64,000 nucleotides of DNA from Candidatus Magasanikiibacteriota bacterium (GCA_030650025.1 JAUSEN010000007.1:9472-73471); one strand, 5' to 3'; positions 3,099 through 36,554 are shown, counted from the stretch's first letter. Numbers and translations: made by a program. Notes: generated from the sequence alone by a model not told the origin.

Positions 3099-3101
3099 TT
3101 G

Positions 3102-14176: not shown

Positions 14177-14224
14177 ATAGGAAACTAGATTCCCGCTGGC
14201 GCGGGAATGACAGAATAATATTTT

Positions 14225-14797: not shown

Positions 14798-14805
14798 TAA
14801 GTAAT

Positions 14806-15834: not shown

Positions 15835-15849
15835 TTTAGCACTAATCGT

Positions 15850-17037
15850 ATGAAAATAAATTCAATTCGTGACGTCAAAAATTTAGCGGGCAAACGCGTG
15901 TTAGTCCGCGTGGATTTTAACGTGCCGATCAAAAATGGCCAGGTACTCGACGACTATAAAATGCGAAAAAATCTGCCCACGATTAAGTATTTGATAGACA
16001 AGAAGGCAAAACTTATTCTCATGAGCCATTTAGGCATGTTGAGCCCGACTGATCCGCCGCAAAGCTTGCGGCCGGTTGCCAAGCATCTGGAGAAATTGTT
16101 AAAACAGCCGGTAAAATTTGTTCCCTTCAAATTAGGGACAAATCCGGAATTAAAATTGATTGATTTAAAAAATGGGGAGGTGGCGGTTTTAGAGAATGTA
16201 CGCTACGCACCGGACGAAAAAACAAACACGGGAATTTTTGCCAAAGAACTGGCTAAACAGGCGGATTATTATGTCTTGGACGGGTTTGCCTCGGCACACC
16301 GCAATTCTACTTCAGTGGCAGGCGTTGCCAAATATTTGCCAGCCTTCGGAGGTTTGCTTATCACAGAAGAAATTGCCGGTCTTTCTAAAGTCATGGAAAA
16401 ACCTAACCAACCACTCGTAGTACTCATCGGCGGGGCTAAAGCCGAAACCAAGATTTCGGTGGTAAAAAATTTACTTCCGAAAGCCGACTATATTTTAGTG
16501 AGCGGCGGATTTTTCAATACATATTTGTGGGCTAAGGGTTTTAAAGTTGGCGGGTCGCTTATTCAAAAAGAGTTCAAAACCGAAATTTTAAAATATGCCC
16601 AATCAAAAAAATTGATTTTGCCGGTTGACCTGGTCGTGGGCCGGGCGGACGGTAGCGCGGCTCGAGTCGTCCCAATTAACGCGGATTTCAAAATTACTGA
16701 TTCCAAGCTCGCTATTTACGACATTGGCCCGGCCACGGTGCAACTATTCGCGGAATACATTAAACAGGCCGCCACCCTTATTTGGAATGGCGCGATGGGG
16801 CGGTTTGAGGTGCACCCTTACGAGTACGGCACGTTTAGCCTGGCGCGTTTGTTTGCCGCCCGATCCAAGGGCAAGGCGTTTGGCGTTTGCGGCGGCGGGG
16901 AAACAGTGCAAGTGGTGGAAAAATTGAAAGTGGCTGACCAAATTGACCTGGTTTCGACCGGCGGCGGGGCGATGCTAGAGTTTTTGGGCGGTAAAAAACT
17001 TCCCGGTTTCTTGGCCTTGAGTAAAAAAGCGAAATAG
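15850..17037 (+). CDS. pgk: Phosphoglycerate kinase
   Basis: RVDFNVP N-terminal signature and conserved PGK blocks throughout. The start sits in the AATCGTATG context. Confidence 0.9.
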   Translation: MKINSIRDVKNLAGKRVLVRVDFNVPIKNGQVLDDYKMRKNLPTIKYLIDKKAKLILMSHLGMLSPTDPPQSLRPVAKHLEKLLKQPVKFVPFKLGTNPELKLIDLKNGEVAVLENVRYAPDEKTNTGIFAKELAKQADYYVLDGFASAHRNSTSVAGVAKYLPAFGGLLITEEIAGLSKVMEKPNQPLVVLIGGAKAETKISVVKNLLPKADYILVSGGFFNTYLWAKGFKVGGSLIQKEFKTEILKYAQSKKLILPVDLVVGRADGSAARVVPINADFKITDSKLAIYDIGPATVQLFAEYIKQAATLIWNGAMGRFEVHPYEYGTFSLARLFAARSKGKAFGVCGGGETVQVVEKLKVADQIDLVSTGGGAMLEFLGGKKLPGFLALSKKAK

Positions 17038-19369: not shown

Positions 19370-20965
19370 ATGAACAAAAATAGGAAAAATATTAAACCAG
19401 CGGCGGTGGTGCTGATAATTTTAGACGGTTGGGGCGCGCGTGATTCGAAGGCCAAAGGCAACCCAATAACGCCGAAAAACGCTCCTAATTATTTTAGTTG
19501 GCTAAAAAAATATCCCCATACTACGCTCCAGGCGAGCGGGGAGGAGGTGGGTTTGTTTAAAGGCCAAGAGGGCAACTCGGAAGCCGGGCATTTGAATTTG
19601 GGCGCGGGGAGAGTGGTTAAGCAGGACGCGCGTTATGTAACGGACGCGATTACCGACGGAACGTTTTTTAAAAACAACGCTTTTCATGAGGCGTTTCATC
19701 ATGTCAAAAAATACAGAACCGCCGTGCATGTAATGGGGTTACTCTCTAACCACAACAGCGCGCACTCATGCCCCGAGCATTTGTACGCGCTTTTGGATTT
19801 GTTTAAGCGCGAGGGGCTAAAGAAAATTTACCTGCATTTATTTACGGACGGCCGCGACTCGGGCCAGCATGATGCCCCTACGCATTTAAAAAAATTACGG
19901 GAACATTTTCGCGGAAATGAGAGCATCGCGAGCTTAATGGGCCGGCTTTACGGCATGGATCGCAATAAAAATTGGGATCGCACCAAAGCCGCCTATGAAG
20001 CTTTGGTTTTAGGGAAGGGACTAAAGGCCAAGTCAACGGAAGAAGCGATTTCGCTCGCCTATAACTCGGGGGACAGTGACGAGTTTATTAGGCCGACTAT
20101 TATGGTTGATAAAAATAACAAACCGGTCGCGACGATTAAAGATAACGACGCGATTTTCTTTTTTAATTTGCGCAGTGACCGGGCGCGGCAATTTACTAAA
20201 GCCTTTGTGCAGCCAACGTTTGAACACGAAAATGGCGGCACGTTTAAGCGTCAGAAATTTCCTAAAAATACTCGTTTTGTGGCGATGACGGATTTTGGGC
20301 CGGATTTGCCAAGAGTGTTAACAGCCTTCCCCAGCCGCGATGTCGTGAATAGCCTGCCCTTTATGCTGGATGGACGAGAACAGCTTTATGTGGCGGAGTC
20401 GGAAAAATTCGCGCATATCACTTATTTTTTCAACGGCGGCTACGCGGATCATGGCCGGACAATTCGCTGGGTTAAAGTGGCCTCGAACCGAGTAAAAGAT
20501 TTTAACGTGGATCCGGCGATGAAGTCAGCGGAATTGGCGCATTATATGGTTAAAGCCATCGCGAGCGGCCAGTATGAGTTTATGGCTGTAAATTTTGCTA
20601 ACGCGGATATGCTGGGGCACACGGGTAACATCTCGGCCGCCGCTCTTGGTATTAACGCTCTCGATAAGGCAATCGGCGAGGTGGTTACAGCCGCGCTTAA
20701 GAAAAATAATGTCGTCTGCATTACCGCGGATCACGGCAATGCCGAAGAAATGATTAATCTTAAAACTGGCGAGTTTGATTCGGAGCACTCCGTAGCGGCG
20801 GCGCCATTTTTGCTGATTGCTAACAGGCATCAATATGATTTGATAGGTATGAATAAAAGGGAACGGCTCCGGAGCGGCGGCCGTTTGGCTGATGTGGCGC
20901 CGACGATTCTTAAAATTTTTGGCATTAAACCGCCCAAAGAAATGACCGGGAAATCTTTATTCTAA
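19370..20965 (+). CDS. gpmI: 2,3-bisphosphoglycerate-independent phosphoglycerate mutase (iPGM), copy 1
   Basis: LIILDGWG ... GNSEAGHLNLGAGRVV metal-site motifs. About 530 aa. Confidence 0.85.
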   Translation: MNKNRKNIKPAAVVLIILDGWGARDSKAKGNPITPKNAPNYFSWLKKYPHTTLQASGEEVGLFKGQEGNSEAGHLNLGAGRVVKQDARYVTDAITDGTFFKNNAFHEAFHHVKKYRTAVHVMGLLSNHNSAHSCPEHLYALLDLFKREGLKKIYLHLFTDGRDSGQHDAPTHLKKLREHFRGNESIASLMGRLYGMDRNKNWDRTKAAYEALVLGKGLKAKSTEEAISLAYNSGDSDEFIRPTIMVDKNNKPVATIKDNDAIFFFNLRSDRARQFTKAFVQPTFEHENGGTFKRQKFPKNTRFVAMTDFGPDLPRVLTAFPSRDVVNSLPFMLDGREQLYVAESEKFAHITYFFNGGYADHGRTIRWVKVASNRVKDFNVDPAMKSAELAHYMVKAIASGQYEFMAVNFANADMLGHTGNISAAALGINALDKAIGEVVTAALKKNNVVCITADHGNAEEMINLKTGEFDSEHSVAAAPFLLIANRHQYDLIGMNKRERLRSGGRLADVAPTILKIFGIKPPKEMTGKSLF

Positions 20966-20967
20966 AT

Positions 20968-22551
20968 ATGGCTTATCAGTATAAACCAGTGACATTAATT
21001 ATTTCAGATGGGTGGGGAGTGGCGCCGGACAGCGAGGGTAACGCCATCACTCGGGCCAAACTGCCTAACTTTAATTATTATAAAAATAATTATCCGGCCA
21101 TGACCATCCACGCCTCGGGGAACGAGGTCGGCCTTTTATTTGGCGAGATTGGGAACTCGGAGGTGGGGCACCTTAATATTGGCGCCGGGAGAGTTTACTA
21201 CCAATCTTGCCCGCGCCTTAATCAGGCTATTCAGGACAATTCTTTTTTTGAGAATAAAGCATTTTTAAACGCTATCGAGCACGTGAAAAAAAATGACAGC
21301 CAGCTTCATCTTATTGGGATGCTATCAAACGGCAATGTCCACTCCAGTAATGAGCATATTTTTGCTTTACTCGATTTATGCCGGCGGCAGGGCCTGGGGA
21401 AGCAGGTGTTTGTGCATGTGATTTTGGACGGCCGTGATGGTAGCTATAACGCCGGCCAAGGCTTTGTGGCCGCGCTAGAAGCCAAGATGGCAGAATTTAA
21501 AGTGGGGAGCATAGCGAGCATATCGGGTCGTTTTTACGCGCTGGATCGCGATAATCGTTGGGAGAGGGTGGAGGCGGCCTTCCGAGCCATGGCCGAAGGA
21601 AAGGCCGCGACCACCGCTACCGAGCCGAGCGCCGCGATCGCGGCCGCTTATGCCCTTAAAAATTATGATGAGGAATTTGTGCCGACCGTGATTATTAAAA
21701 ACGGGCAGCCTGTAGCCACGGTGGCAGAGGGGGACAGCGCGATTTTTTTTAACTTTCGTCCGGACCGAGCGCGAGAATTGACCAAAGCTTTTGTCTTGCC
21801 CGGTTTTAACAAATTTCCTCGCGCTTATATTAAAGATTTATATTTTGTTACCATGATGGAATACGAAAAGGATTTGCCGGCGCTGGTGGCCTTTGAATCT
21901 ATCGTAGTGAAAAATTCACTCGCCGAGGTGGTGAGCGCCGCGGGGCTTAAGCAATTTCATGCGGCGGAAACCGAGAAATACGCGCACGTTACGTTTTTTC
22001 TCAATGGCACGGTGGAGTCGGCTTGGCCGGGCGAAGATAGAGTTTTAATCCCTTCGCCGCACGTGGCGAGTTACGCGGAAGCGCCCGAGATGTCCGCGCG
22101 CGAAGTCGCCAAAGCGGCGACCAAGGCCATTGATAGCGGCGTCTATAATTTAGTGGTCATTAATTTCGCGAACGCTGATATGGTGAGCCACACCGGGGAT
22201 TTGGCCGCCACTATTAAAGCCTGCGAGGCAGTTGACCAGTGCTTGCGCGATGTCATTGACCACACGCTAGCCCAAGGGGGCGCGGCTGTGATTACCGCTG
22301 ATCATGGCAACGCGGAAGAGATTATAAATTTACAAACCGGGGAAATAGATAAAGAGCATTCTACCAACGCGGTGCCCTTTATTATTGTTAGTAAAGAATT
22401 CCAGGGTATGGCGGGCCCGAACGGCGACGCCCCAGAAGGTGATTTGAGTCTACTCCCGCCCGCTGGTGTTTTGGCCGATGTGGCGCCAACAGTTTTAGCT
22501 TTGATGGGTTGTAATAAGCCTTCAGAAATGACCGGCACGCCATTAATTTAA
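20968..22551 (+). CDS. gpmI: iPGM copy 2, a diverged tandem paralog
   Basis: LIISDGWG ... GNSEVGHLNIGAGRV. It starts 3 nt after copy 1 ends. Identity to copy 1 looks moderate by eye (my estimate is about 40%). Confidence 0.85.
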   Translation: MAYQYKPVTLIISDGWGVAPDSEGNAITRAKLPNFNYYKNNYPAMTIHASGNEVGLLFGEIGNSEVGHLNIGAGRVYYQSCPRLNQAIQDNSFFENKAFLNAIEHVKKNDSQLHLIGMLSNGNVHSSNEHIFALLDLCRRQGLGKQVFVHVILDGRDGSYNAGQGFVAALEAKMAEFKVGSIASISGRFYALDRDNRWERVEAAFRAMAEGKAATTATEPSAAIAAAYALKNYDEEFVPTVIIKNGQPVATVAEGDSAIFFNFRPDRARELTKAFVLPGFNKFPRAYIKDLYFVTMMEYEKDLPALVAFESIVVKNSLAEVVSAAGLKQFHAAETEKYAHVTFFLNGTVESAWPGEDRVLIPSPHVASYAEAPEMSAREVAKAATKAIDSGVYNLVVINFANADMVSHTGDLAATIKACEAVDQCLRDVIDHTLAQGGAAVITADHGNAEEIINLQTGEIDKEHSTNAVPFIIVSKEFQGMAGPNGDAPEGDLSLLPPAGVLADVAPTVLALMGCNKPSEMTGTPLI

Positions 22552-22672: not shown

Positions 22673-23002
22673 ATGTTGCGTATCTACAAAACCAAGGGGT
22701 GTATGGAAAGGTCGCTTGGTTTAATCGGGCGCAAACAGCTAAAGCCAGGCGAGGCGCTTTATTTCGCGCGCGTTAAGCGAATTCATACTTGGTTTATGAA
22801 GTACTCGATTGACGCGGTATTTACCGGTCTTGATGAGCGCGTTTTAAGCGTGCAAACTCTGTTCCCTTGGAAAATTTCGAGTCGCGTGCCGCGCGCCTTT
22901 CACTGCTATGAATTGTTAGCAGGAGAAGCCGTGCGATTAGGAATTGTATCAGGGCAACGGCTTTGGTTAGACAGCGAGTTATATGTTGCAAACTTGGCTT
23001 AA
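22673..23002 (+). CDS. DUF192 family protein
   Basis: Pattern ...RSLGLIGRKQL.PGEALYF...IHTWFMKYSIDAVFTGLDERVLSV...ELLAGEAVRLGIVSGQRL matches the DUF192 (COG1430) layout. Confidence 0.5.
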   Translation: MLRIYKTKGCMERSLGLIGRKQLKPGEALYFARVKRIHTWFMKYSIDAVFTGLDERVLSVQTLFPWKISSRVPRAFHCYELLAGEAVRLGIVSGQRLWLDSELYVANLA

Positions 23003-23141
23003 AGACGAATCAGGGCAGACTTTGTCCGAGTATGGCCTACTAGTCGCGGTTATTGCCGTGGCTATTGTCGGCGCGGTGGTAGTGTTTCGAGACAAAATTC
23101 AGGGTGTGTTTACCACCGCCGGAGACGCTTTAAGCAAATAG
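22983..23141 (+). CDS. flp: Flp family type IVb pilin (52 aa)
   Basis: Translates to MLQTWLKDESGQTLSEYGLLVAVIAVAIVGAVVVFRDKIQGVFTTAGDALSK. This shows the Flp motif: a leader, then G/x-x-x-x-EY before a hydrophobic stretch. It is not in the ORF track because it is under 60 aa, and it overlaps the end of the DUF192 gene by about 20 nt. Confidence 0.6.
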   Translation: MLQTWLKDESGQTLSEYGLLVAVIAVAIVGAVVVFRDKIQGVFTTAGDALSK

Positions 23142-23191
23142 TAACTACCCCCCAATTTATTTTTGGGGGGAGACTATTATTTGTTTACAAC

Positions 23192-23257
23192 GCCGCGCTT
23201 CAATGGTCGTTCGCGACATCGCGAGAGACGTTGCACGGCACGATTTCGTTAAATCGT
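23192..23257 (+). promoter_or_regulatory. Copy of the recurrent 5' element upstream of tadE
   Basis: GCCGCGCTTCAATGGTCG-hairpin(TCGCGA..TCGCGA)-GTTGCACGGCACGATTTCGTTAAATCGTATG. Confidence 0.5.
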
Positions 23258-23698
23258 ATGCACATGAATAAGTGGCTAAAAAATAATTCTGGGCAAGCGC
23301 TGGCGGAAACAGCGCTTATTTTGCCGATTCTAATTTTTATATTGATGGGAATTTTTGTGGTCGGTTATTGGTTATACGCGCGCCAAGTAGTGATCGCGGC
23401 GGCGCGAGAGGGGGCGAGGATCGGTTCGCAAAGCGGAGACTGGGCCACGCTCGATGAGGCGGCGCGCATGGTTTTAAAAACTCTTGATGGGCGCCCGGAA
23501 AGTGAACGCATTAATATTACAGCTGTCACGGAACCGGACAATATTAGAGGCAGTACCCTGATTGTTGAGGTGAGTTATAAAATTCCGTTTAGCTTTAATT
23601 TTTTTAAAAATGCTTATGCGGAAAAAAATGAACCTTACTTGTTTGGAGAAGTTAGGGAGCAAGCGGTGGCGCGGTTGGAAACAGATTTTGCGGATTGA
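23258..23698 (+). CDS. tadE: TadE-like pilus assembly protein
   Basis: N-terminal TadE motif NNSGQALAETALILPILIFILMGIFVVGYWLYA. Confidence 0.65.
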   Translation: MHMNKWLKNNSGQALAETALILPILIFILMGIFVVGYWLYARQVVIAAAREGARIGSQSGDWATLDEAARMVLKTLDGRPESERINITAVTEPDNIRGSTLIVEVSYKIPFSFNFFKNAYAEKNEPYLFGEVREQAVARLETDFAD

Positions 23699-24263
23699 TA
23701 ATGAGGCCGGAGCGAGCCTGGTATTCGTGGTAATGTTCATGCCTATTTTGCTTTTGTTTATGGCGATGATTATAGATTTAGGAGGACTTTTGGTGCAACA
23801 AGAACAGGTTACTAATCTGGCGGATTTAGCGGCCGCGGCCGGCGGCCGGGTAGCCGCCGAGGCAATTGCTTACGCGGCTGGTTTGCGGCACCCGAACCCG
23901 ACCGAAGCAGAAAAGGCCGAGGCCGTTAAGTTTATTTCGCCTCAAGATAGAGAGGAGATTCAAAACGGCACTTACCAGCTGGCGGGAGTGGCTATAAAAG
24001 AGGTGGTGAGTTCAGAAATTACTAAGTACGCGCTCTTGAACGCGCCCTTGCCGATAAATTTTTCTAGTGATAATGATTTGATAATTAATTATATGCCAGA
24101 TTTTAATGATTGTTTAAACGAATTTGATAAAACAGCGGAAATAGAGGCGGGGGCCAAGGCAAAATTTACTTTTTTATTTGGCGGTTTATTAAAAATTTTT
24201 GGGCTGGAACAAGAAAAGATGGTGGCCGCCACGGGGACGTATCAATTACAAATTTGTCCATAG
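23610..24263 (+). CDS. TadG/TadF-like pseudopilin or pilus assembly protein; start uncertain
   Basis: RIDNEAGASLVFVVMFMPILLLFMAMIIDLGGLLVQQEQVTNLADLAAAAGG matches the TadG N-terminal pattern. The track start overlaps tadE by about 90 nt, and an in-frame TTG near 23688 is a plausible alternative. Confidence 0.5.
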   Translation: MLMRKKMNLTCLEKLGSKRWRGWKQILRIDNEAGASLVFVVMFMPILLLFMAMIIDLGGLLVQQEQVTNLADLAAAAGGRVAAEAIAYAAGLRHPNPTEAEKAEAVKFISPQDREEIQNGTYQLAGVAIKEVVSSEITKYALLNAPLPINFSSDNDLIINYMPDFNDCLNEFDKTAEIEAGAKAKFTFLFGGLLKIFGLEQEKMVAATGTYQLQICP

Positions 24264-24274
24264 AGTTGCGCTTT

Positions 24275-24943
24275 ATGAAAAAAAATACTCAATTAATAGT
24301 AGCTGGGGTTTTGGCAGTGGTGGCTGGCGCTCTGGCGTATGGGTGGCTGACAGCGCTTGCCAGGGGGCAAGAGTTAGTCTTGGTGGTAGCGTTGGCTCAC
24401 GATGTGGAGAAGCCGGCGATGCTTGGGGAGAGTGATTTTATTTTTATAAAAGTGCCCCGAGCCAGTTTGCCAAACGGCGTTTTATTTAATAAAAACCAGG
24501 CGATCGGCAAAACCTTAAGCCACTCGGCGCCAGAGAAGTATATTTTAAACAGCCGAGATTTTGCTAATCGCCGAGATAGTAGTTCGGAATCCATGCTCGT
24601 GCCGCCAGGATTTGTCGGCATGGTTATTCCGGCCAATTGGCTCGCCGCGCCTTTGCCTAAAATTAAACCGCACGATTTAGTGTCGGTTTTCGCGGCGGTT
24701 CCAATTACTAAACAAGGCGGCGGGGTGTCTCTCCAAGTAGTGTCCGCGGCCGAAGTTTTAGCGGTGCGTAGCGATAAGGATTTAGGGCCGCAAGGAGTGT
24801 ATTTAGCCTTGCCGAGCCCGGTCGCGGAGCGGTTGCTCCAGCTAAAGGCGGCGCAACTACTTCTCCTCATAGTAGCGGAATCCGGTTTAACTAATGTTAC
24901 CGCCAGCCAGATGGCATCAACTTCAGTTGGGTATGGAACATAA
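24275..24943 (+). CDS. cpaB: Flp pilus assembly protein CpaB/RcpC
   Basis: N-terminal TM helix (LIVAGVLAVVAGALAYGWL) followed by a SAF-like domain. Its position in the locus fits. Confidence 0.65.
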   Translation: MKKNTQLIVAGVLAVVAGALAYGWLTALARGQELVLVVALAHDVEKPAMLGESDFIFIKVPRASLPNGVLFNKNQAIGKTLSHSAPEKYILNSRDFANRRDSSSESMLVPPGFVGMVIPANWLAAPLPKIKPHDLVSVFAAVPITKQGGGVSLQVVSAAEVLAVRSDKDLGPQGVYLALPSPVAERLLQLKAAQLLLLIVAESGLTNVTASQMASTSVGYGT

Positions 24944-26072
24944 TAGAGAACAATTACACCAGGCGCTGGTGGCCAGTTTTGAGAAGAGTGGTTTGAATTT
25001 GTCAGCGCTAAGCCCTAGCGAATTGGCAGAGAAAATTAACAGCTTTCTCGAATCAATAGACGAAAGCGCCGCGGATAAACACGCCGCGCCGCTTTTTTGG
25101 CTGGTTACCGGCTTTGGGCCGCTCGAGCCTTTGCTTCAAGACGATACGATTACCGAGATTTTAGTAAATGGGCCCGAGCAAATTTATATTGAAAGAAATG
25201 GCCGGTTAGAAAAATCGGACCGGGTTTTTTCTTCACTCTCGGAGTTAAAAAATATTATCGGGCGCATGGCTAGCTTGGCCGGAAGGCGGATTGATACGGC
25301 CCAGCCCTATGTGGACGCGCGCCTCGCGGATGGCTCGCGCATCAACGCCATTATTCCGCCGCTGTCTCGACCGTGGCCAATTTTGACGATCCGAAAATTC
25401 GCGCGGCAAATGTTTACGCTTTTAGATTTAGTAAAAATGCAAACGATGAGCAACCAGATGGCCGAATTTTTAAAGAGCGCCGTATTAGCGCGGCAAAATA
25501 TTTTGATTTCCGGCAGTACCGGCGCGGGCAAAACCAGTTTACTGAACGCGCTCGCTGCCGCGGTACCCGCCAGCGAGCGCTTAATTGTGATAGAAGATAC
25601 CGCCGAGATTAAGCTTAATCATCCGCATCTCGTAACTCTAGAAGCGCGCCAGAGTAATATGGAGGGCAAGGGCGAAGTTAGCATTCGGGCGCTCTTGCGC
25701 AATGCTTTGCGTATGCGGCCGGACCGCGTAATTATTGGCGAAGTTCGAGGCGGGGAGGCTCTCGATATGCTCCAGGCTATGAATACGGGCCATCAGGGCG
25801 CGGTTACCACCATTCACGCTAACGCTCCACACGAGGCGCTCTTGCGCCTTGAGACCATGGCCATGATGACTGATATTGAGATGCCGCTCCTCGCTATTCG
25901 AGAGCAAATTAATATGGCGATCCGCTATATTCTGCAGATCGAGCGCCTGCCAAGCGGAGAGCGCAAAATGGTGGCGCTAAGCGAGCTGATCAAGCGCCCG
26001 CGCGAGGCGGAATATTTGGTTAAGCCGCTATTTATTTATGATAAAACGCGTCAAGAATTTAAAACCGCCTAA
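24933..26072 (+). CDS. cpaF: Tad pilus secretion ATPase CpaF/TadA
   Basis: Walker A ILISGSTGAGKTSLLNAL, with Asp box and His box (VIIGEVRGGEALDMLQAMNTGHQGAVTTIHANAPHEALLRLE) typical of CpaF. Confidence 0.85.
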   Translation: MEHNREQLHQALVASFEKSGLNLSALSPSELAEKINSFLESIDESAADKHAAPLFWLVTGFGPLEPLLQDDTITEILVNGPEQIYIERNGRLEKSDRVFSSLSELKNIIGRMASLAGRRIDTAQPYVDARLADGSRINAIIPPLSRPWPILTIRKFARQMFTLLDLVKMQTMSNQMAEFLKSAVLARQNILISGSTGAGKTSLLNALAAAVPASERLIVIEDTAEIKLNHPHLVTLEARQSNMEGKGEVSIRALLRNALRMRPDRVIIGEVRGGEALDMLQAMNTGHQGAVTTIHANAPHEALLRLETMAMMTDIEMPLLAIREQINMAIRYILQIERLPSGERKMVALSELIKRPREAEYLVKPLFIYDKTRQEFKTA

Positions 26073-26101
26073 ATAATACTTTAGTTAGTTACCAGGGATT
26101 T

Positions 26102-26968
26102 ATGAAATGGCTTGTGACGTTGGCGTTTATGGGGTTAAGTTTTATTTTTGTTTATAATTTATTTTATATATTCAGGAAAATATCGAATTTAAATATATTT
26201 GTTTATCACCAGTTTTGGCCGTCCTTAAGCGGGCGCCGCCTTTCATGGTGGGAGCGGACGTTGCTTGTCGCCGGCATGAAAAAAATAATGCGTTTTGAAG
26301 CGGCTGTGATTTTTGGTTTTGTGATTGTGGGAATATTGTTGTTGACAAAGCAATTTGTCTTGGTCGCGGCCGCGCTGGCAGGCGCGATTATACTAATGGG
26401 ATTTATAATTAACCGCGGGCGCGCCAGGAAAAAGCTCTTGATAAAAGAAATTCCCGAGGCGCTCGGCACGCTTTCCGATACCATGAAATCCGGTCTGACT
26501 TTTATTCAGGCTGTTGAGCTTTTAAGCGCGGAATTGCCGGAACCGATGAGAAGCTTGTTTAAGGCGCTGCAACGCGGCAATGAATACCAACTGCCTCTTG
26601 GTACTGCCCTGCTCTCCACGGCGGGGCAGGTTGGTGTGGCGGAGTGGACTTTGGCGGCGCGCGTTTTGGCTCGCCATAGCGAAGCGGGCGGCAATATTTT
26701 ACCAACTCTAGAGGCGCTGGCCGAAGCTTTACGCGACCGCGCCGCGGCGGCCCAAGAGATTAAGTCTTTAACAGCGGCGGGTCGTTTAACTGGCCTTTTA
26801 ATTACCGCTTTAATGCCGATTACCCTGATTTTGTTTAGCGTGCTTAGTCCATCGTATGTGGCCGCGCTATTTACCACCACGGCGGGCAAAATTTCTTTGC
26901 TAGTAGCGGGTAGTTTAGAAGTAATTGGAATTATATGGATATATTTCATACTAAAATTGAGACGATGA
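26102..26968 (+). CDS. tadB: Tad pilus inner-membrane platform protein TadB (GspF-like)
   Basis: Polytopic membrane protein with a T2SSF-type domain, in locus order. Confidence 0.65.
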   Translation: MKWLVTLAFMGLSFIFVYNLFYIFRKISNLNIFVYHQFWPSLSGRRLSWWERTLLVAGMKKIMRFEAAVIFGFVIVGILLLTKQFVLVAAALAGAIILMGFIINRGRARKKLLIKEIPEALGTLSDTMKSGLTFIQAVELLSAELPEPMRSLFKALQRGNEYQLPLGTALLSTAGQVGVAEWTLAARVLARHSEAGGNILPTLEALAEALRDRAAAAQEIKSLTAAGRLTGLLITALMPITLILFSVLSPSYVAALFTTTAGKISLLVAGSLEVIGIIWIYFILKLRR

Positions 26969-27576
26969 TCGTGTCGTTTGGATTGGCCGCAGCCTTTGGC
27001 AGTGTAGTTTTTTGGTTGGTAGTAACTTGGTTACGAAGTAGTAAAATAAATTTTTATTTATTTATTTTCAAGAAATTTGATTTAGGGAGCTGGCTAGAGC
27101 GCAATTTTCGTCGCTGGTCAGCTGGCCAGCGCCGGGCGATAGAGCGAGATCTGCCGCAAGTTATCCATTTGTTTTGTCTAGAAATTTCCGCGGGCAATAA
27201 TTTAGCTATGGCTATGGCCGGAGTAGCCAGCGTTATAGACGGTTCGTGGTCTCAAGAATTAACCAAAATTTTGGTTCGTCATAATATGGGCATTAGTTTG
27301 AACGAGTCATTATTAATTTCGGCCGAAGCGCTCCGGAGCCCTGATTTTAGCCATTTTGTGTTGGCGCTCCGCCAGGCCGAGGCGCTTGGTGTTTCGCTTA
27401 CCGAGATGTTAACAATGGAAGCGAAATTGCTCACGTCCAAACGGCGCCGGGAAGCAGAAGAATTGGCCAGAAAGGCGTCGGTAAAAATTTCCGCGCCGCT
27501 GGTTTTGTGTATTTTTCCGGCTTTGTTGATTGTGTATTTAATGCCGGTAATTATTAATTTGCTCGAAACTTTATAG
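26935..27576 (+). CDS. tadC: Tad pilus inner-membrane platform protein TadC (GspF-like)
   Basis: Second GspF-like polytopic protein. It overlaps tadB by about 30 nt. Confidence 0.6.
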   Translation: MDIFHTKIETMIVSFGLAAAFGSVVFWLVVTWLRSSKINFYLFIFKKFDLGSWLERNFRRWSAGQRRAIERDLPQVIHLFCLEISAGNNLAMAMAGVASVIDGSWSQELTKILVRHNMGISLNESLLISAEALRSPDFSHFVLALRQAEALGVSLTEMLTMEAKLLTSKRRREAEELARKASVKISAPLVLCIFPALLIVYLMPVIINLLETL

Positions 27577-27578
27577 GT

Positions 27579-28037
27579 ATGAATGAATTGATTTTTGTTT
27601 GGGCGATAATAGTGGCCGGGGCAGGGGTATTTTATGATATCAAATATCGGATTATTCCCAATTGGCTGGCGTTAGGCGGATTAATCGGGGCTTTGATTTT
27701 AGCGTTTTTTGCGGGCGGGTGGTTGGAATTAGCTAGCCACGCGGCCGGGCTAGCGCTCGCCGGTGGCGCGTGGCTGGTTTTATGGCGAGCGAAAATAATG
27801 GGCGGCGGAGACCAAAAATTAATGAGCGCGCTTGGCGCTTGTTTTTCTTGGCCAACGGTTCAGTATTTTATTTTGTTTGTAGCTTTATGGGGCGGAGCGC
27901 AAGGAGGCCTGGCGATTTTAAGAAATCGATGGGCTAAGCGGAAGTCGGAAGGCGTTAGACCAGCGCCCAAAATTTTTATACCATATTCAGTGGCTATTTT
28001 TTTAGGTTTAATTACCAATATTGTGTTAATTTTTTAA
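27579..28037 (+). CDS. tadV: Prepilin peptidase CpaA/TadV (A24 family)
   Basis: Two catalytic Asp regions: FYDIKYRIIPNWL and GGGDQKLMSALGAC. Confidence 0.7.
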   Translation: MNELIFVWAIIVAGAGVFYDIKYRIIPNWLALGGLIGALILAFFAGGWLELASHAAGLALAGGAWLVLWRAKIMGGGDQKLMSALGACFSWPTVQYFILFVALWGGAQGGLAILRNRWAKRKSEGVRPAPKIFIPYSVAIFLGLITNIVLIF

Positions 28038-28089
28038 AAAGGGTATAATATTGTCAGTAATATTTTTTGACATAATTTCGTTAAATCAT

Positions 28090-28572
28090 ATGATTTTTCA
28101 AAAGCCAGCGGTTAAACAAAGTGATTTTTCTATTTCGGCCCATCCCGAAGAACCGGGAGCGATCCGCGATGAAGTGGAAACGGTCGTGGGGCCCTCGGTA
28201 AATGTGGAGGGTGATTTTGGTTCGGAAGGCAATATTGTGGTAAAAGGGACGGTATCGGGGAGCGTGCGCACCAGTAAGCATTTGTTTGTTGAAATGGGAG
28301 CAAAAATAATGGCCAATGTCAAGGCGGGCACATCAAAGGTATCGGGCGAGGTCAAAGGAAATATTAAGGTTAAAGACACGCTAGAGCTGACGGCTACGGC
28401 GCGCGTTCTTGGAGATATTGACGCCAAAATTTTAATTATTGAAGCCGGAGCCATAGTATCGGGGCGCGTTAGCATGCCAGGGCTCGAAGGGGTAGACGCC
28501 AAAGCCGCGCCGAGGCTCGCGCGCCTCGGAGCCAGACGCCTTTCTGAAGAAGCTCCGGCCGTGACGCTTTAA
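28090..28572 (+). CDS. Bactofilin
   Basis: Repetitive beta-helix pattern (VKGTVSGSVRTSKHLFVEMGAKIMANVKAGTSKVSGEVKGNIKVKDTLELTATARVLGDIDAKILIIEAGAIVSGRV). The ATG at 28090 is in the TTTCGTTAAATCATATG context. Confidence 0.75.
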   Translation: MIFQKPAVKQSDFSISAHPEEPGAIRDEVETVVGPSVNVEGDFGSEGNIVVKGTVSGSVRTSKHLFVEMGAKIMANVKAGTSKVSGEVKGNIKVKDTLELTATARVLGDIDAKILIIEAGAIVSGRVSMPGLEGVDAKAAPRLARLGARRLSEEAPAVTL

Positions 28573-29387: not shown

Positions 29388-29471
29388 GCCCAGGTGGCGA
29401 AATTGGTAGACGCACTACCTTGAGGTGGTAGCTCCCGCAAGGGAATGGAAGTTCGAATCTTCTCCTGGGCA
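29388..29471 (+). tRNA. tRNA-Leu (anticodon GAG)
   Basis: Cloverleaf traced: acceptor GCCCAGG/CCTGGGC, anticodon stem CTACC/GGTAG with loop TTGAGGT, long variable arm and T-loop TTCGAAT. No CCA is encoded. Confidence 0.85.
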
Positions 29472-29612
29472 CGAAAAAGAAACGAAATCTTTTTCTGGTT
29501 TTTTTGGTTGGTAGTACAGGAAGCCGCGGTATACGCCGAGCTCCCTGGTTCGGACAGCTTTTGACGTCATACTTTTCCGCGCTACGTCCGTAATATTGCT
29601 AGAGAAAAGTGA

Positions 29613-29887: not shown

Positions 29888-32800
29888 ATGTTTTATCGCC
29901 GGTTCCAAAAAATACTTATTTCTATAGTAGCCCTGCAAATGATTATTATGCCGGTCGTTCCGGCGTTAGCAGATGAGATCACGTCAACCGGCACTTCCAC
30001 TCCGCCCGCTTTAGCCCCAGCAGAACCACCCAAAAAAGATGATTCGCCCTTTTCGGCCCGCCAACTTATGCGCGAGTACCAGTCGTTTATTAGCGCTGAA
30101 AAAAATAAAAATAATTCCGCCGCCAAAGTTGCCTTAGCCGGCAAATTAGACGCTTTGATGGAGAGTGAGAGTAAAAGTTTAAGCGCGCTCGGCGTCGATG
30201 CCGAACGCCAGGCGCGATATTTTGGCCAACTCCAAACCATGGCGGAAATTTTAGACCCGGCGCGCCAGAGTTTTGTAGACAAAAAAGTTGGCGATCTTAA
30301 GGCCTGGCTGGGCCTCAAAAAACCCGACCAGTCAACGGACGAAGCAAACCGTCCGGATATTGTCATACCCGCAAAACCAGCCAGTTTTAGATTCAACAAC
30401 GCGCCCATTGAACTGAACAAAATTAAACTGGGGGAGTATCCATCTATGGCCAAACGGTTATCGCTCCGCGCGCGGGTTCGCGATATATTTTCCATTGACC
30501 AAGCGCTGGCCGGCCCGCTCACTCTGCCCGTGCTGGCAGATGTAGAGCCGGATGGAGCGCAGGTGGTTAGCGCGGCGCAATTTACCGATCTGGCCCAATC
30601 GCTCCACAACAACCCGCTGGAAATATACAACTACGTCCGCCAGACCATTTCCTACGAAGCCTATTACGGCGCTAAAAAAGGCGCGCTCGGCTGTTTTAGA
30701 GAAAAATTTTGCAATGATGCGGACGCCAGTTCACTCCTAATCGCCCTTTTGCGCGCGGCCGGTATTCCGGCCCGCTATGTAAAAGGCGTGGCCGTACTGC
30801 CGGTAGAAACCGCCCGCCAGCTCGTGGGCGTGGACGAAACCAAAACCGCCTACGCCGCCCTGTACGCCAACCGCGTGCCGGTGTTTTTAGTGTCCGGCAA
30901 CAATGTGGGGCCCAATTACGATCAGGCTGATTTTTCTCAAGAAAAATACTTTGGCGTGGAGTGGGTGAGCGTGGAAGCCTTTTATGATTACGATGAACGA
31001 GGCGGCAATATCAACAACACGTTAAACCTCTCTACGGCCACCACCACTGAATCGCTCCAGGCCATTCTCCAACAGGCCAGCCCCGAAAAGCAGTGGATTC
31101 CACTTGACCCAATGGTTCAACCGTCCGTTCGCACGGTAAACGAAATCGTGGCCGATACCGCCCAATTTAATTCGCAAACATTTTGGAATGATTACCTTAA
31201 ATATCAAGGTCCGCTTTCGCCTCTCAACAAATACGCGGCGGATTTAAAAAACCAAACCAACAAAGATATTTTCTCCGACCAGTTCCAGTCCAGCGCCGCG
31301 CCCCAGTTTAGCGCCGCGCGCCTGCTACCTGCCACCTTGCCCTATAATTTTACCAGCGGCCTTAAAGATGGCGATTTGCCGATTGCCAAAGAATACTGGT
31401 CAATTCTGCCAAACGACCGCCAAGAAAAAGTTATTATTACGCTTAAGCGCGCCGGGAATAATGAAGCAGTGATAACGCATACCTTTTTAGCCAGCGAGGC
31501 CAACAACCAGCCGATTGATTTGTCTTACGCCGGTGCTACTCCGGATGACCAGGCGGTGATTGATGGCTACGGCGGCCTGGCCTACACTCCGGCCGCGTTG
31601 GTAGATATTTTGCCATCTTTCACCCTCGCCAACACTACGGTGCCGGGCAACATCAAGATGGCGATCGGGGATTCGCTCATTATGCAGTTTGAATATCAGA
31701 GCAACGGCCAAACGATTGAAACCAACCAAAAATTTTCCGTGGCCGGCAATGCCGAAGGTATTTATATGGCCTTTTCGCAAATCGTGCCCGACCCCTCGCT
31801 CGTAAACAATAGCCAAATTTTATTCGCCGGCAACGCGGCCATCGCCCGGGCCTATCTCAATCGTCTGGCGGCCGACAACGCGGTTCTGGCCAAATCGCTG
31901 GATTATCAGCTCAACACCGAGTTTGCGCGCGCCGTGGTTACGCAAAATCGCGTGCTCTCTAAAGTTAATGACATTCCCACCACCTTTGATTTTAAAGGCC
32001 TAACGATTGACGCGGGCGCGGTTATTAATGACTATTCGCGCCGCGGCAATTACAAAAATCATCGCCTAGATTTCCGCTTGCTTTCCGGCCAAAACGCCTC
32101 GTACTACGAAGGCCAGCTTTTCACCGATCTCGCGGGCTTAAACGGTATTTCTACCATCAAAGGCTTGCAATACGCCTACGCCAACCCCAACGACTATACC
32201 GTGCACACCATCACCAAGGCCAACGAGGCCGACATTGACGCGTTACAGCTCTCGGACAACACTAAACAAAACCTGCACAGCGAAGTGGCCAAAGGCAACA
32301 CTATCACCACGCCCAACAAACCCATTGCCAAGGGCGCGTTTACCGGTATTGTCTACACCAGCATCGCGCCAAACGGCACCGGCCTCTATGCCATTGGCGA
32401 GCAGGTGGCGAATGGGGGGTGGACCGTGAACCCGGTTGTGCTGGCGCAACTGCAGAGCGATGTTGATAACAGCGTACTAGAGAGTTTTCAGGTGGATGAT
32501 GGCAACAATACTTTTGTGTACCGGGATAAATTATCAGGCAGTATTGATTGTCGTATCAACAGCAATACTTTCGGACGCATTTTGGCCAATAAGGATAAGG
32601 CTGGCCAGCCGATTCCGGCTGGCGAGGCAGAATGGAAAACCCGCTATGGCTGGCCGTGCGTTGATGATAATGAGAACGGGCCATATAAGTTTGGAGATTA
32701 TGAGCATGATTTTTTGGTAGCTACTGATGGGGCCAAGTTCACCAGTCCGGGGAGGTATGAATACTGGGTTAATGATACTGCGGTTGAAAATCTTTTTAAG

Positions 32801-34336
32801 ACAAAATTTGACTTTAATAACGGTAATTATTCATTGCGAAATGTTCGTACATATTGGGGTACGTATATTTATAAAGAGAATTGGGAAACTCACAACTTGC
32901 GTGAGTTAGGCGTATATAATCCAGAGCACCGCAAGGTATATGAAATGCCGATTTTTAGGAATGGAGAAAAATACTTATCGGCGGATAAAATTGAAGGTAA
33001 ATTCGTGCCGGAATTGATTGGTTATCCAATGAGCGAAAATAAGACGGCGGCTCTTTCCCCAAACGGTACCGACGGCTACTATCAGCAATTTACCAACGGC
33101 ACTATGTATACCAGGCCATCTCTTTCAACGTTTTGGAAGTCACTGGTGGTCTATGGTAAATGGAACGATATCCATAACCAGCAGGGCGGTACGGGCGGTA
33201 TAGGTTTCCCGGATAGTGATACTTTTTTTGATCAGCCATATAATGCGATTATTCAGAAATTCGAGAAAAAGATTTGTTATGACAAGAATGGAATTATTTG
33301 CGAAAATAGAATTTGGAAAGCAGATTTTCAGAGAGGATTGGATTCGTTTTATGACTCTTTCCAATTAATGAGTGTTGCCTATACCATATATAAAAATAAT
33401 GTCATGCAAGAAAGTTACGCGCAATTTTTGGTCGCAGTAGATTTAGCCAATGATACTCGGGAGGAAAGAAAGAACCTGTGTTATCTTTACAATGCTGAAT
33501 ATTCTCAACCCCTCTTTCTCTACCCCGCTCTCTATGCGGACGCGCAATGCGTTTTTCCCAAAAGCTTGGCTTATTACCAATCTAAGAAAGCGGATGCGCA
33601 GAATAAAATTAACGACCTCGGTCAAAAAACTACCGCCAGTGTTCAACAAGCTGAACAACTACACCTTTCGTTGGTGAGCCAGGTAGAAAATGGCGTTCAG
33701 ACTCCGTTTGAGTGGCTCGGTTTTATGGTGGTGGACTTGGGGACAGTGGTAGTTGGTCCCGCCTCCAAACTGGGTGTCAACGCCGCGAAACAGGTCGCTT
33801 TGAAAATGACCGCACGCTATGGCGCGGAAATTATGTCGGCGCGGATTAATCGTGCGCTTCTAATGAAGGCCACGAAGAAAGCGGCTGAAAGAGAGCTGGC
33901 ACAGCAGGGCGCCGCCGCCACCGAGTCGGCGCTGGAGGTACGATTGGAAAGAGCGGTATTAGGAGAGTTAAAGGGGGCGGGATTGGCTTATGTTGAACGG
34001 CGAGGTATAAAAGTGCCGATGGATTTGGCAAAACAGTTGCCTGGGAAGTGGTATAAATCAACTTCTTCTGATGTCGTGGATAGTTTTGCGAAACATTGGC
34101 AGAAACACGGAGTATTAGAGATGGAAAAGAAAAAATTGCCTCTTAAGACAATCCAAGAGTATTTTGATGATTCGAAGAATTTTTATAATCAGTATAAAGG
34201 ATTAAAAACTTCTGTAACACTTGACGATTTGACCGAAGGTATATTAATTAGACAGCCAGGGCAACCGGGCGGCTATTTTACCGGTCCCGGTCATCCGATG
34301 GGTGAAGGGCTAGCGGTTACTTTTTGGTATTTCTAG
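29888..34336 (+). CDS. Giant secreted protein (1482 aa) with a transglutaminase-like cysteine protease core
   Basis: N-terminal signal/anchor MFYRRFQKILISIVALQMIIMPVVPALA. Transglutaminase-like core GALGCFREKFCNDADASSLLIALLRAAGIPARYVKG. The start is in the AAATCATATG context. Confidence 0.6.
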   Translation: MFYRRFQKILISIVALQMIIMPVVPALADEITSTGTSTPPALAPAEPPKKDDSPFSARQLMREYQSFISAEKNKNNSAAKVALAGKLDALMESESKSLSALGVDAERQARYFGQLQTMAEILDPARQSFVDKKVGDLKAWLGLKKPDQSTDEANRPDIVIPAKPASFRFNNAPIELNKIKLGEYPSMAKRLSLRARVRDIFSIDQALAGPLTLPVLADVEPDGAQVVSAAQFTDLAQSLHNNPLEIYNYVRQTISYEAYYGAKKGALGCFREKFCNDADASSLLIALLRAAGIPARYVKGVAVLPVETARQLVGVDETKTAYAALYANRVPVFLVSGNNVGPNYDQADFSQEKYFGVEWVSVEAFYDYDERGGNINNTLNLSTATTTESLQAILQQASPEKQWIPLDPMVQPSVRTVNEIVADTAQFNSQTFWNDYLKYQGPLSPLNKYAADLKNQTNKDIFSDQFQSSAAPQFSAARLLPATLPYNFTSGLKDGDLPIAKEYWSILPNDRQEKVIITLKRAGNNEAVITHTFLASEANNQPIDLSYAGATPDDQAVIDGYGGLAYTPAALVDILPSFTLANTTVPGNIKMAIGDSLIMQFEYQSNGQTIETNQKFSVAGNAEGIYMAFSQIVPDPSLVNNSQILFAGNAAIARAYLNRLAADNAVLAKSLDYQLNTEFARAVVTQNRVLSKVNDIPTTFDFKGLTIDAGAVINDYSRRGNYKNHRLDFRLLSGQNASYYEGQLFTDLAGLNGISTIKGLQYAYANPNDYTVHTITKANEADIDALQLSDNTKQNLHSEVAKGNTITTPNKPIAKGAFTGIVYTSIAPNGTGLYAIGEQVANGGWTVNPVVLAQLQSDVDNSVLESFQVDDGNNTFVYRDKLSGSIDCRINSNTFGRILANKDKAGQPIPAGEAEWKTRYGWPCVDDNENGPYKFGDYEHDFLVATDGAKFTSPGRYEYWVNDTAVENLFKTKFDFNNGNYSLRNVRTYWGTYIYKENWETHNLRELGVYNPEHRKVYEMPIFRNGEKYLSADKIEGKFVPELIGYPMSENKTAALSPNGTDGYYQQFTNGTMYTRPSLSTFWKSLVVYGKWNDIHNQQGGTGGIGFPDSDTFFDQPYNAIIQKFEKKICYDKNGIICENRIWKADFQRGLDSFYDSFQLMSVAYTIYKNNVMQESYAQFLVAVDLANDTREERKNLCYLYNAEYSQPLFLYPALYADAQCVFPKSLAYYQSKKADAQNKINDLGQKTTASVQQAEQLHLSLVSQVENGVQTPFEWLGFMVVDLGTVVVGPASKLGVNAAKQVALKMTARYGAEIMSARINRALLMKATKKAAERELAQQGAAATESALEVRLERAVLGELKGAGLAYVERRGIKVPMDLAKQLPGKWYKSTSSDVVDSFAKHWQKHGVLEMEKKKLPLKTIQEYFDDSKNFYNQYKGLKTSVTLDDLTEGILIRQPGQPGGYFTGPGHPMGEGLAVTFWYF

Positions 34337-34416
34337 AAAAATATGTATTTTAAATGGGTTTATAAAATAAAAAATGACGACAGAAATCACAGGACGAATT
34401 AATTTTTTCCATTGTT

Positions 34417-35400
34417 ATGGTTGTATTGGATGAAATCAGTGAACCAATTAGCTTAGGCCACGACTATGATTTAATAGATGGTCATGTTGTATTTGATAGA
34501 GCAGTCGGTGTGCTGGGTGCAGATGTTGAATCATTCCAAGACATAGGTGGCCGTTATGGGAAAGACAAACAAATGGTTTATTACATGGCAGAACCAGTGC
34601 TGATAATTGATGCAAAAACAGTCGTCTATTTGGGCGATGGCTATATAAAAGATAAGAGACAAGTCTATTGGTGTGCCGAATCTATCCCTGGAGCCGATCC
34701 GGGAAGTTTTGTAGTTTTAGATTATGGATACTATGCGAAAGATAAGAATAATATTTATTATGGGCGTGAGATTATTGCTAATGCGGATCGGAAAAGTTTT
34801 GTGGTTTTAAATTTTGATTATGCAAAAGATGTAAATTACGGATATTATCATTCTGAACGTTTTAATGTAGCCGAGGATTTTACTGCATTAAAACATACAA
34901 ATTACGCTAAAGACAAACATTCAGTTTTTTATTGTACTCAACCTATCCCTGGAGCCGATCCGGAAAGCTTTGTTAACATTGATTATGAAAAATACGCCAA
35001 AGATAAACAGTCTGTTTACTATCGCGGTCAACCTATCCCTGGAGCCGATCCGGGAAGTTTTGTTGTTCTTAAACATGATAATTATGCTAAGGATAAAGAT
35101 AAAATTTATTTTGATGGTAAAATTATTGAAAATTGCGATTATAGAAGTTTTATAATTTTGTCACCTTGTTATGCTAAAGATGAAAAGTCGGTCTTTTATG
35201 GTAACAAATCAATCGCCGGTGCTCACGTTAAAAGCTTTAAATTGATTGACGGTAATTATTATTATGCCAGAGATAAGAGGGCAATTTATTATGACGGCGA
35301 TGCGATTGTAGGTGCAGATTATGGAAGTTTTTATGTGAGAGGCGTTACATCTGCATACGATAAATTCGGTAAATTTGATCGGGGAAATAGAATAACTTAA
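34417..35400 (+). CDS. DKNYY-repeat family protein
   Basis: At least 8 repeats of YAKDK(N/Q/D)xxYY.G..I.GADP.SFxxL. The region is AT-rich. Confidence 0.6.
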   Translation: MVVLDEISEPISLGHDYDLIDGHVVFDRAVGVLGADVESFQDIGGRYGKDKQMVYYMAEPVLIIDAKTVVYLGDGYIKDKRQVYWCAESIPGADPGSFVVLDYGYYAKDKNNIYYGREIIANADRKSFVVLNFDYAKDVNYGYYHSERFNVAEDFTALKHTNYAKDKHSVFYCTQPIPGADPESFVNIDYEKYAKDKQSVYYRGQPIPGADPGSFVVLKHDNYAKDKDKIYFDGKIIENCDYRSFIILSPCYAKDEKSVFYGNKSIAGAHVKSFKLIDGNYYYARDKRAIYYDGDAIVGADYGSFYVRGVTSAYDKFGKFDRGNRIT

Positions 35401-35428
35401 AATTATCCAGCATGGTATTAATAAAAAT

Positions 35429-35710
35429 ATGTCTGACCTTGGCCTTATTGGAGTTGAGGAATTGGTGAAACATTATAATAAATATAAGGTAAATCAAATT
35501 GTGTTGGATAAAATTATTAATGAAGAAGCCCTTGGTTTGGTACAAAATGAAGGCAAGCAAGCATTCGTGAAGTCTGGTCTAAATCGTATGGTCGATTATA
35601 TTGTTGAAGCGACAGGTAGAAACGTGCAGCAAATCAATGTGGGGGATATCGTATTAGACCCAAATTACGGCTCTGGTAAATATTTTAATGTTACTTATAT
35701 TTTAAAGTAG
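35429..35710 (+). CDS. Hypothetical small protein that shares a motif with the next gene
   Basis: DLGLIGVEELVKHYNKYK recurs as DFGLIGVEEFIKHYDKYK inside the 254-aa neighbour. Very AT-rich. Confidence 0.4.
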   Translation: MSDLGLIGVEELVKHYNKYKVNQIVLDKIINEEALGLVQNEGKQAFVKSGLNRMVDYIVEATGRNVQQINVGDIVLDPNYGSGKYFNVTYILK

Positions 35711-35712
35711 TT

Positions 35713-36477: not shown

Positions 36478-36554
36478 ATGCCTGATAAATATGATGGAGA
36501 TGGATAATCATTAAAACAGGAAGATTAATTTTACTACTATTTAAACCCAACCAT

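Follow-up and report, generated by a model that had tools for sequence, protein, structure and literature searches.

Tad/Flp (type IVc) pilus systems lacking a secretin are well described from single-membrane bacteria, where secretin loss is the rule (PMC6668835, PMC6916266) and has occurred repeatedly (PMC6668835). The minimal single-membrane system has been defined as a pilin plus two minor pilins, along with a prepilin peptidase and TadA, TadB and TadC, with no outer-membrane parts and one extra membrane-associated protein, either TadZ or TadG (PMC6916266); the same study lists RcpC as missing in single-membrane bacteria, describes tadZ as 'replaced' by tadG in Micrococcus luteus, and notes the documented role of the Bifidobacterium breve UCC2003 tad locus in host colonisation. 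For bacteria of the candidate phyla radiation (CPR), we found no paper on Tad/Flp pili in our literature search, the published pilus work being concerned with type IVa pili (T4aP). Here, we describe a locus at positions 22673-28037 of a 64,000-nt stretch of DNA (GCA_030650025.1, JAUSEN010000007.1:9472-73471; hereafter, the window) which, with a probability that we put at roughly 0.8, is a functional nine-gene operon for a Tad/Flp pilus of the single-membrane type in a Candidatus Magasanikbacteria genome. The machine is of a known kind and the host lineage is new; to the specialist the finding is solid but not surprising.

The nine genes lie on the + strand in the order DUF192, flp, tadE, tadF/G-like, cpaB, cpaF, tadB, tadC and tadV (Table 1). 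A first-pass annotation, made from the sequence alone, had proposed eight contiguous same-strand Tad genes in 22983-28037; these eight were confirmed by Pfam and NCBIfam scans and, for CpaB, by profile-profile comparison, but the start of the operon has to be moved one gene upstream, to DUF192. With the exception of CpaB, every one of the eight exceeds its Pfam threshold. Neighbouring genes either overlap (by 20, 11 or 4 nt) or are separated by 2-29 nt, the sole exception being a 116-nt gap after flp. A second gene caller, applied to the identical sequence in Logan run SRR13727527, recovered the same nine genes together with the bactofilin and DAGK genes that follow them. Its starts, which for TadE, the TadF/G-like protein, CpaB, CpaF and TadC lie slightly downstream of those of the longest open reading frames (ORFs), were used for the feature coordinates.

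Table 1. Predicted features of the Tad/Flp locus, in window coordinates; a slash marks a predicted prepilin cleavage site
Feature	Position	Strand	Longest ORF, where different	Support
DUF192 protein, 109 aa, no hydrophobic segment	22673-23002	+		Pfam PF02643, 38.6 bits (cutoff 27)
Flp prepilin, 52 aa	22983-23141	+		Pfam Flp_Fap, 40.1 bits (cutoff 32.2)
GC-rich hairpin (CCCCCCAA / TTGGGGGG core), then U-rich stretch, just 3' of the flp stop	23137-23178	+		Folding
TadE minor pilin (pseudopilin), 146 aa, leader ...NNSG/QALAE	23258-23698	+	23231-23698	Pfam TadE, 53.4 bits (cutoff 22.9)
TadF/TadG-like prepilin-like protein, ~206 aa	23643-24263	+	23610-24263	PF13400 'Tad', 32.4 bits (cutoff 22.3)
CpaB/RcpC-like protein, 222 aa, N-terminal membrane anchor	24275-24943	+	24254-24943	TIGR03177 and hhalign
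CpaF/TadA secretion ATPase, 379 aa	24933-26072	+	24894-26072	T2SSE, 194.9 bits
TadB platform protein, 288 aa	26102-26968	+		Single T2SSF domain, 42.8 bits; multiple hydrophobic segments
TadC platform protein, 203 aa	26965-27576	+	26935-27576 (213 aa)	Single T2SSF domain, 56.8 bits
TadV/CpaA-type prepilin peptidase, 152 aa, without methyltransferase domain	27579-28037	+		Peptidase_A24, 56.4 bits

An NCBI protein from a metagenome-assembled genome (MAG) labelled 'Candidatus Magasanikbacteria bacterium' is 100% identical to the ribosomal protein S2 encoded in the window, and the window's DUF192 protein lies on the same MAG contig as that S2 protein; the NCBI automatic annotation of this MAG already labels CpaF and DUF192. 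By this match the host is assigned to Candidatus Magasanikbacteria, a CPR bacterium as the first-pass annotation had supposed.

The gene order from DUF192 through the peptidase, followed by bactofilin and DAGK, is shared by three relatives: L001, L002 (GCA_023246725.1) and L004 (GCA_016189025.1, Magasanikbacteria). The closest CpaF among 5.8 billion proteins is 66% identical to that of the window, and CpaF identity among the four Tad-positive genomes falls to 52-66%; across the proteins of the locus, identities between the window and these relatives range from 25 to 88%, with all nine ORFs intact in the four genomes. These genomes are monophyletic both in a DAGK tree of 82 sequences and in the CpaF tree, where the window locus adjoins other secretin-less loci from small genomes. 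Furthermore, the GC content of the Tad block (0.480) is that of the host (0.478), and its GC3 and tetranucleotide profiles are also host-like. On monophyly and host-like composition we rejected a recent horizontal transfer of the block; they fit a single old acquisition that has since been retained, which would imply purifying selection and argues for function; host-like composition together with conservation makes it probable that the Tad block is functional. The block marks one small sub-lineage, of four genomes.

The relatives' operons tolerate insertions. L002 has three genes without assignment (131, 164 and 420 aa) between flp and tadE (3529-5728) and an ACT_7 protein between cpaF and tadB (8805-9191), and in L004 four genes (DUF3800, NmeDI_C and others) lie between tadC and the peptidase gene (13472-16239).

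The flp gene, the sole Flp-like ORF of the window, encodes a prepilin with a predicted cleavage site after G11 (MLQTWLKDESG/QTLSEY), which would leave a mature pilin of 41 aa. Its G/QxxxEY motif is kept in four of four orthologues, and the Flp proteins of the window and of L001 share 88% identity. The corresponding G/QAxxE motif of TadE is likewise kept in each of the four loci. In the TadF/G-like protein, a basic leader of the form RRGWK...(D/N)ExG/ (NEAG/ in the window) is followed by one transmembrane segment, with no Glu at +5; in L001, L002 and L004 this leader is conserved as amino acids ahead of the called starts. Two putative catalytic aspartates of the peptidase, D20 and D78 (GGGD), are conserved in all four orthologues.

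The best NCBIfam model for CpaF is the TadA-family model TIGR03819 (342.6 bits, under its equivalog cutoff of 373), compared with 178 bits for FlaI and 45 bits for PilB, and its best database relatives carry the name CpaF; the recorded protein starts 13 codons after the start of the 392-aa ORF. The start of cpaF overlaps the stop of cpaB by 11 nt, and that of tadC overlaps the stop of tadB by 4 nt. T4aP genes were not supported at the locus, the PilB and PilT models reaching 45-48 bits against cutoffs above 300, and the sole PilM_2 match in the window was a weak one, to MreB. CpaB is the weakest assignment of the eight Tad genes. When four CPR CpaB orthologues were compared with canonical CpaB proteins, hhalign gave a profile-profile probability of 98.9% over 203 columns, and a mixed CpaB profile matches the RcpC dodecamer structure (PDB 9gzr) at E 1e-23.

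To search for missing components, we used hidden Markov models (HMMs) for the secretin (from 10 Pfam-verified Tad secretins), long TadZ (43 sequences) and short TadZ (three sequences) on every six-frame ORF of at least 35 aa in the window at E <= 10. Neither the secretin HMM nor the two TadZ HMMs gave a match there, and none was obtained in the CPR loci of the relatives, including the 18-kb loci of L002 and L004. Consistent with this, Pfam scans of all larger window ORFs revealed no Secretin (PF00263), ParA or CbiA domain. Among 80 comparison loci, the same HMMs detect a secretin in 34 and TadZ in 61. The 11-nt overlap of cpaB and cpaF leaves no room between them for a lost gene such as tadZ. 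For TadD, no gene encoding tetratricopeptide repeats (TPR) was found within 30 kb of the locus, the sole TPR protein of the window (62706-63608) being 35 kb away and matching generic TPR models only, far under their cutoffs. No RcpB was seen in the window scans, which included no RcpB-specific model. The absence of secretin, TadZ and TadD from the locus, as claimed in the first-pass annotation, is thus borne out within the window.

The special status given there to the missing secretin did not survive comparison. The 80 comparison loci, GTDB loci from among the matches listed for CpaF similarity, come from many phyla and include no CPR relatives; 46 of them, mostly from Firmicutes, Actinobacteria and Chloroflexi, also lack a secretin, as is the norm in single-membrane bacteria, while in the 34 that have one its gene lies inside the locus, between cpaB and cpaF. 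CpaB is retained in 25 of the 46 secretin-less loci, in contrast to the published statement on RcpC (PMC6916266). Since 44 of the 46 keep TadZ, it is the predicted loss of TadZ, and not that of the secretin, that is distinctive of the window locus on this comparison. The next neighbours of the window in the CpaF tree still carry TadZ between cpaB and cpaF, as a short ParA-type protein of 243-251 aa in L170 and L171, and L006 has a degenerate TadZ-like gene at this place; this graded series, ending with no TadZ in the window, suggests that TadZ was reduced stepwise and then lost in this CPR sub-lineage. The window holds the parts of the minimal single-membrane system, with the TadG-like protein as the extra component.

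The ninth gene, DUF192, overlaps the start of flp with its last 20 nt. In each of the four clade members it is flp's immediate upstream neighbour, and the gene before it varies (iPGM, a gene without assignment, or SSB); DUF192 is the probable first gene of the operon. An AlphaFold2 model of the protein (pLDDT 83), built on a shallow alignment of six homologous proteins, matches only the DUF192 structures 3m7a and 3pjy (TM-scores 0.67-0.71) and so gives no functional clue. The gene recurs widely, which we had not expected: although the 80 comparison loci were chosen by CpaF similarity alone, a DUF192 HMM finds matches in 32 of them, and in 24 of these 32 DUF192 follows tadC on the same strand at a distance of 36-239 nt. 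The DUF192-bearing loci represent at least seven phyla or classes, among them Firmicutes, Actinobacteria, Chloroflexi, Lentisphaeria and Beta-, Gamma- and Deltaproteobacteria, and all nine of the proteins checked exceed the Pfam threshold. With lengths of about 100-125 aa and neither a hydrophobic N-terminus nor a signal peptide, the Tad-locus proteins presumably stay in the cytoplasm, in which they differ from the 'signal peptide' DUF192 proteins of the PDB. In the reverse test, from DUF192 to its neighbours, four of four genes followed up were found in a Tad or prepilin-peptidase context (plasmids of Moraxella, Streptomyces and Alkaliphilus, and the Alloalcanivorax chromosome). Loci with DUF192 behind tadC include L175 of Alloalcanivorax marinus, the plasmid NZ_CP087831.1 of Moraxella bovis and a plasmid of Streptomyces.

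Furthermore, in L006 (7310-8014) and in L007, which are two independent assemblies, an ORF of 234 aa encodes a DUF192-like domain that runs in frame into a TadE prepilin, the junction being ...KIKLPG/QALVE. In one CPR lineage a DUF192-like domain thus appears to be fused to the TadE leader; the DUF192 half is modestly supported (Pfam E 0.033; our own HMM 1.6e-7). The sole mention that we found in the literature is that DUF192 genes, without known function, accompany Tad operons in Erysipelotrichales and Helcococcus (PMC12786226). As the presence of DUF192 and that of TadZ are uncorrelated (DUF192 in 23 of 61 loci with TadZ and in 9 of 19 without), we do not claim that DUF192 replaces TadZ. We tentatively suggest that DUF192 might be a general, hitherto overlooked cytoplasmic accessory part of Tad/Flp machines across Bacteria, with the prepilin leader or the CpaF-TadB/C platform as its possible target, and flag it as a recurrent Tad-locus gene that is the most promising lead from this work.

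The hairpin that follows flp has a predicted stability of -20.2 kcal/mol (z-score -3.5 against shuffled sequences, none of 200 shuffles being as stable). It might act as an attenuator that raises the amount of pilin mRNA relative to machinery mRNA, a reading that is tentative because the flp-to-next-gene gaps of 9-47 nt in L001, L002 and L004 leave no space for such a hairpin. Ahead of the tadE and bactofilin genes there is a 13-nt exact repeat, ATTTCGTTAAATC (23243-23255 and 28075-28087), which in both cases ends 2 nt before the start codon; a copy with one mismatch (43466-43478) lies 20 nt before a 130-aa ORF that starts at 43499. We dropped this repeat as a candidate regulatory element, as it is found at these places in no relative and only in the Logan contig of the same organism. 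A sigma-70-like site at 28067-28094 was also set aside, since it overlaps the bactofilin start codon and is uninterpretable.

The machine's identity has good support. Drawing on what is established for Tad systems, we envisage the short A24 peptidase acting on the cytoplasmic side of the membrane, where it would cut Flp, TadE and probably the TadF/G-like protein behind the conserved Gly and so free them of their leaders. A CpaF hexamer would power the TadB/TadC platform, on which the 41-aa Flp would be polymerised to a thin filament with the minor pilins as primers, and a membrane-anchored CpaB/RcpC ring would lead this filament across the wall. The secretin would be dispensable, as none is needed where there is no outer membrane. 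TadZ, a ParA-like docking protein, would have been lost, the machine assembling without it, as reported for M. luteus. We infer that a pilus is made and serves adhesion to a host cell or a surface; attachment to a host cell is plausible, and DNA uptake is an equally open alternative.

In support of host attachment by the pilus, the first-pass annotation had pointed to the bactofilin gene (28090-28572) that lies directly downstream of the peptidase gene and is followed by DAGK. It could be argued that bactofilin works together with the pilus machine, giving it its position in place of TadZ, as the bactofilin gene directly follows the peptidase gene in all four Tad-positive genomes and the missing TadZ leaves such a role vacant. 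However, in a metagenomic scan anchored on DAGK (80 loci at 60-72% identity), bactofilin was directly upstream of DAGK in 75 loci, and Tad genes were upstream of bactofilin in none, with at least 1.5 kb of further upstream sequence in 48 loci and at least 7 kb in 32. Downstream of DAGK, synteny is conserved in relatives (methyltransferase, UPF0102, NDK, M50, on to L10 and L7/L12), whereas upstream of bactofilin the place of the Tad block is taken, in the Tad-less relatives L088 (7791-9416) and L107 (7630-9444), by a HisKA_7TM histidine kinase; this difference marks a synteny breakpoint at which the Tad block would have been inserted, and in L004 two HisKA_7TM kinases (3-3226) lie about 4.5 kb upstream of the block. 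In L004, moreover, four unrelated genes separate tadC from the peptidase gene, the Tad loci of L006, L170 and L171 have no nearby bactofilin, and our literature search found no paper linking bactofilin with Tad pili. As the pair is kept in 75 of 80 loci without any Tad gene, bactofilin and DAGK are, by their neighbourhoods, a housekeeping pair of the lineage whose adjacency to the pilus genes is incidental; the link between bactofilin and the pilus is refuted, and bactofilin as a substitute for TadZ, which we consider very improbable, is rejected on the same neighbourhood evidence.

It has also to be considered that the machine may serve mainly for DNA uptake (competence), given that CPR bacteria cannot make nucleotides and that M. 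luteus needs its Tad system for transformation. The architecture is of the M. luteus type, with a TadG-like protein and no TadZ (PMC6916266), CPR papers tie type IV pili and ComEC to DNA uptake (PMC8672522), and nothing at the locus specifies an adhesin. As the main role, uptake is nevertheless unlikely in our judgement: we found no ComEA, ComEC, ComFC or DprA gene in the window, and in CPR bacteria uptake has been assigned to T4aP genes (PilB/C/M/O) and not to Tad, although the roles are not mutually exclusive. Alternatively, the loss of TadZ might have inactivated the system and left its genes drifting. In favour of this, most comparison loci have TadZ (61 of 80, and among the secretin-less ones 44 of 46), L006 has a degenerate TadZ-like gene, and TadC is shorter in the window (203 aa) than in relatives (243-289 aa). 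Such decay is improbable to us in view of nine ORFs that are intact in four genomes despite the divergence of CpaF, of the predicted catalytic residues and cleavage motifs that are kept, of the high Flp identity between the window and L001, and of the report that the Tad system of M. luteus functions without TadZ (PMC6916266). We see next to no likelihood that the locus belongs to an ordinary double-membrane Tad system with its secretin, TadZ and TadD encoded outside the window, even though the window covers 64 kb of a 74,945-bp MAG contig and Tad parts are split over more than one locus in some bacteria. Where comparison loci have a secretin, its gene lies between cpaB and cpaF, which overlap here; the 18-kb loci of L002 and L004 have neither secretin nor TadZ, the CpaF tree neighbours are secretin-less small-genome loci, and the host belongs to the CPR, a group that is generally described as lacking an outer membrane.

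Several points nevertheless weigh against our preferred reading, a functional single-membrane-type operon. The case is built on sequence, and the window covers 64 kb of one contig, so that TadZ, or a second pilus system supplying parts, could sit elsewhere in the genome. CpaB alone stays below a curated cutoff (TIGR03177, 42.8 bits against 71, E 3.6e-11, with a weak SAF match too), and as a CPR-only CpaB profile run against PDB sequences gave no direct match to RcpC 9gzr, its homology is shown through intermediates. Which start codon the TadF/G-like gene uses is uncertain (ORF from 23610; gene call with TTG at 23643), and the DAGK and CpaF trees are neighbour-joining trees without bootstrap support. 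That CPR cells have no outer membrane is taken from published cryo-EM work.

The remainder of the window, which is almost wholly + strand, holds several further features. Upstream of the locus, 19370-22551 contains two adjacent paralogous genes for cofactor-independent phosphoglycerate mutases (531 and 527 aa) within a set of glycolysis genes (PGK and enolase, with GAPDH and TIM farther away); the tandem pair is also present in L107 and L157. Downstream, DAGK is followed by a tRNA-Leu gene (29388-29472), between which and the methyltransferase gene, which follows DAGK in about 35 relatives, lie some 12.3 kb of lineage-specific genes (29888-42186). They encode a 1482-aa transglutaminase-core protein, a DKNYY protein, two proteins without assignment and a 1627-aa protein, and the DKNYY gene and a 254-aa ORF (34417-36477) have a GC content of 31-36%, compared with 48% for the window; the region looks like an inserted island of surface proteins.

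A tandem repeat with a 123-bp unit (3.3 copies, 85% matches) occupies 9429-9839, within a 369-aa ORF (9181-10290) that has a weak ACT-domain match only and may encode a repeat-containing surface protein. The first 2000 nt have a GC content of 57%, compared with 48%, and long overlapping ORFs on both strands (349-1446 on the + strand, 250-1401 and 203-1012 on the - strand), none of which has a Pfam or NCBIfam match; the + strand translation there looks like an antisense artefact. Three long ORFs, 48750-51035 (761 aa, one of the few minus-strand genes), 10462-11904 (480 aa) and 52092-53579 (495 aa), gave no Pfam match at E <= 0.001. The first two had no NCBIfam match at all, and the NCBIfam matches of the 495-aa ORF were glycosyltransferase-like and very weak, the best reaching 19.6 bits (E 1.9e-4) where the cutoff is 699.

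Compared with described systems, the locus is similar to the Tad loci of M. luteus (PMC6916266), with which it shares a single-membrane host, the absence of secretin, TadD and TadZ, and the presence of a TadG-type protein, a pilin, a TadE-type minor pilin, TadA/CpaF, TadB and TadC. Set against the published description of M. luteus, the window adds a CpaB/RcpC-like protein, DUF192 and a peptidase encoded within the locus, and its Tad genes form a single compact operon in a CPR host whereas the M. luteus loci are duplicated. The B. breve UCC2003 tad locus (PMC6916266) is also secretin-less and has a Flp pilin, two minor pilins, TadA, TadB and TadC; it keeps TadZ and has its peptidase encoded elsewhere, while in the window TadZ is missing, the peptidase gene belongs to the operon, and CpaB and DUF192 are present. 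Secretin-less loci of Firmicutes, Chloroflexi and Actinobacteria (for example L010, L013, L019 and L049), whose CpaF is 46-56% identical to that of the window, share the order flp-tadE-cpaB-cpaF-tadB-tadC, often with DUF192 and an A24 peptidase. However, these loci have a TadZ of 380-460 aa between cpaB and cpaF (as do 44 of the 46), and DUF192 comes after tadC and not before flp. With its nine genes and neither secretin nor TadZ, the window locus is about the smallest complete Tad set, a natural 'minimal machine' for probing the roles of TadZ and CpaB.

The double-membrane Tad systems of Caulobacter, Aggregatibacter and Pseudomonas (RcpC 9gzr) have Flp, TadE/F, CpaB/RcpC, CpaF, TadB/C and TadV in common with the window; they need in addition the secretin RcpA/CpaC, RcpB, TadD and TadZ/CpaE, which the window was not found to carry. 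At least one Magasanikbacteria sub-lineage would have a second, very compact class of pilus. Like the T4aP of CPR bacteria (Saccharibacteria, PMC11623550), for which attachment to the host has been proposed or shown, it is a type IV filament machine in a CPR host; whereas T4aP systems have one two-domain PilC, the ATPases PilB and PilT, PilMNO and larger pilins, the window has the TadB/TadC pair, CpaF and a 52-aa Flp.

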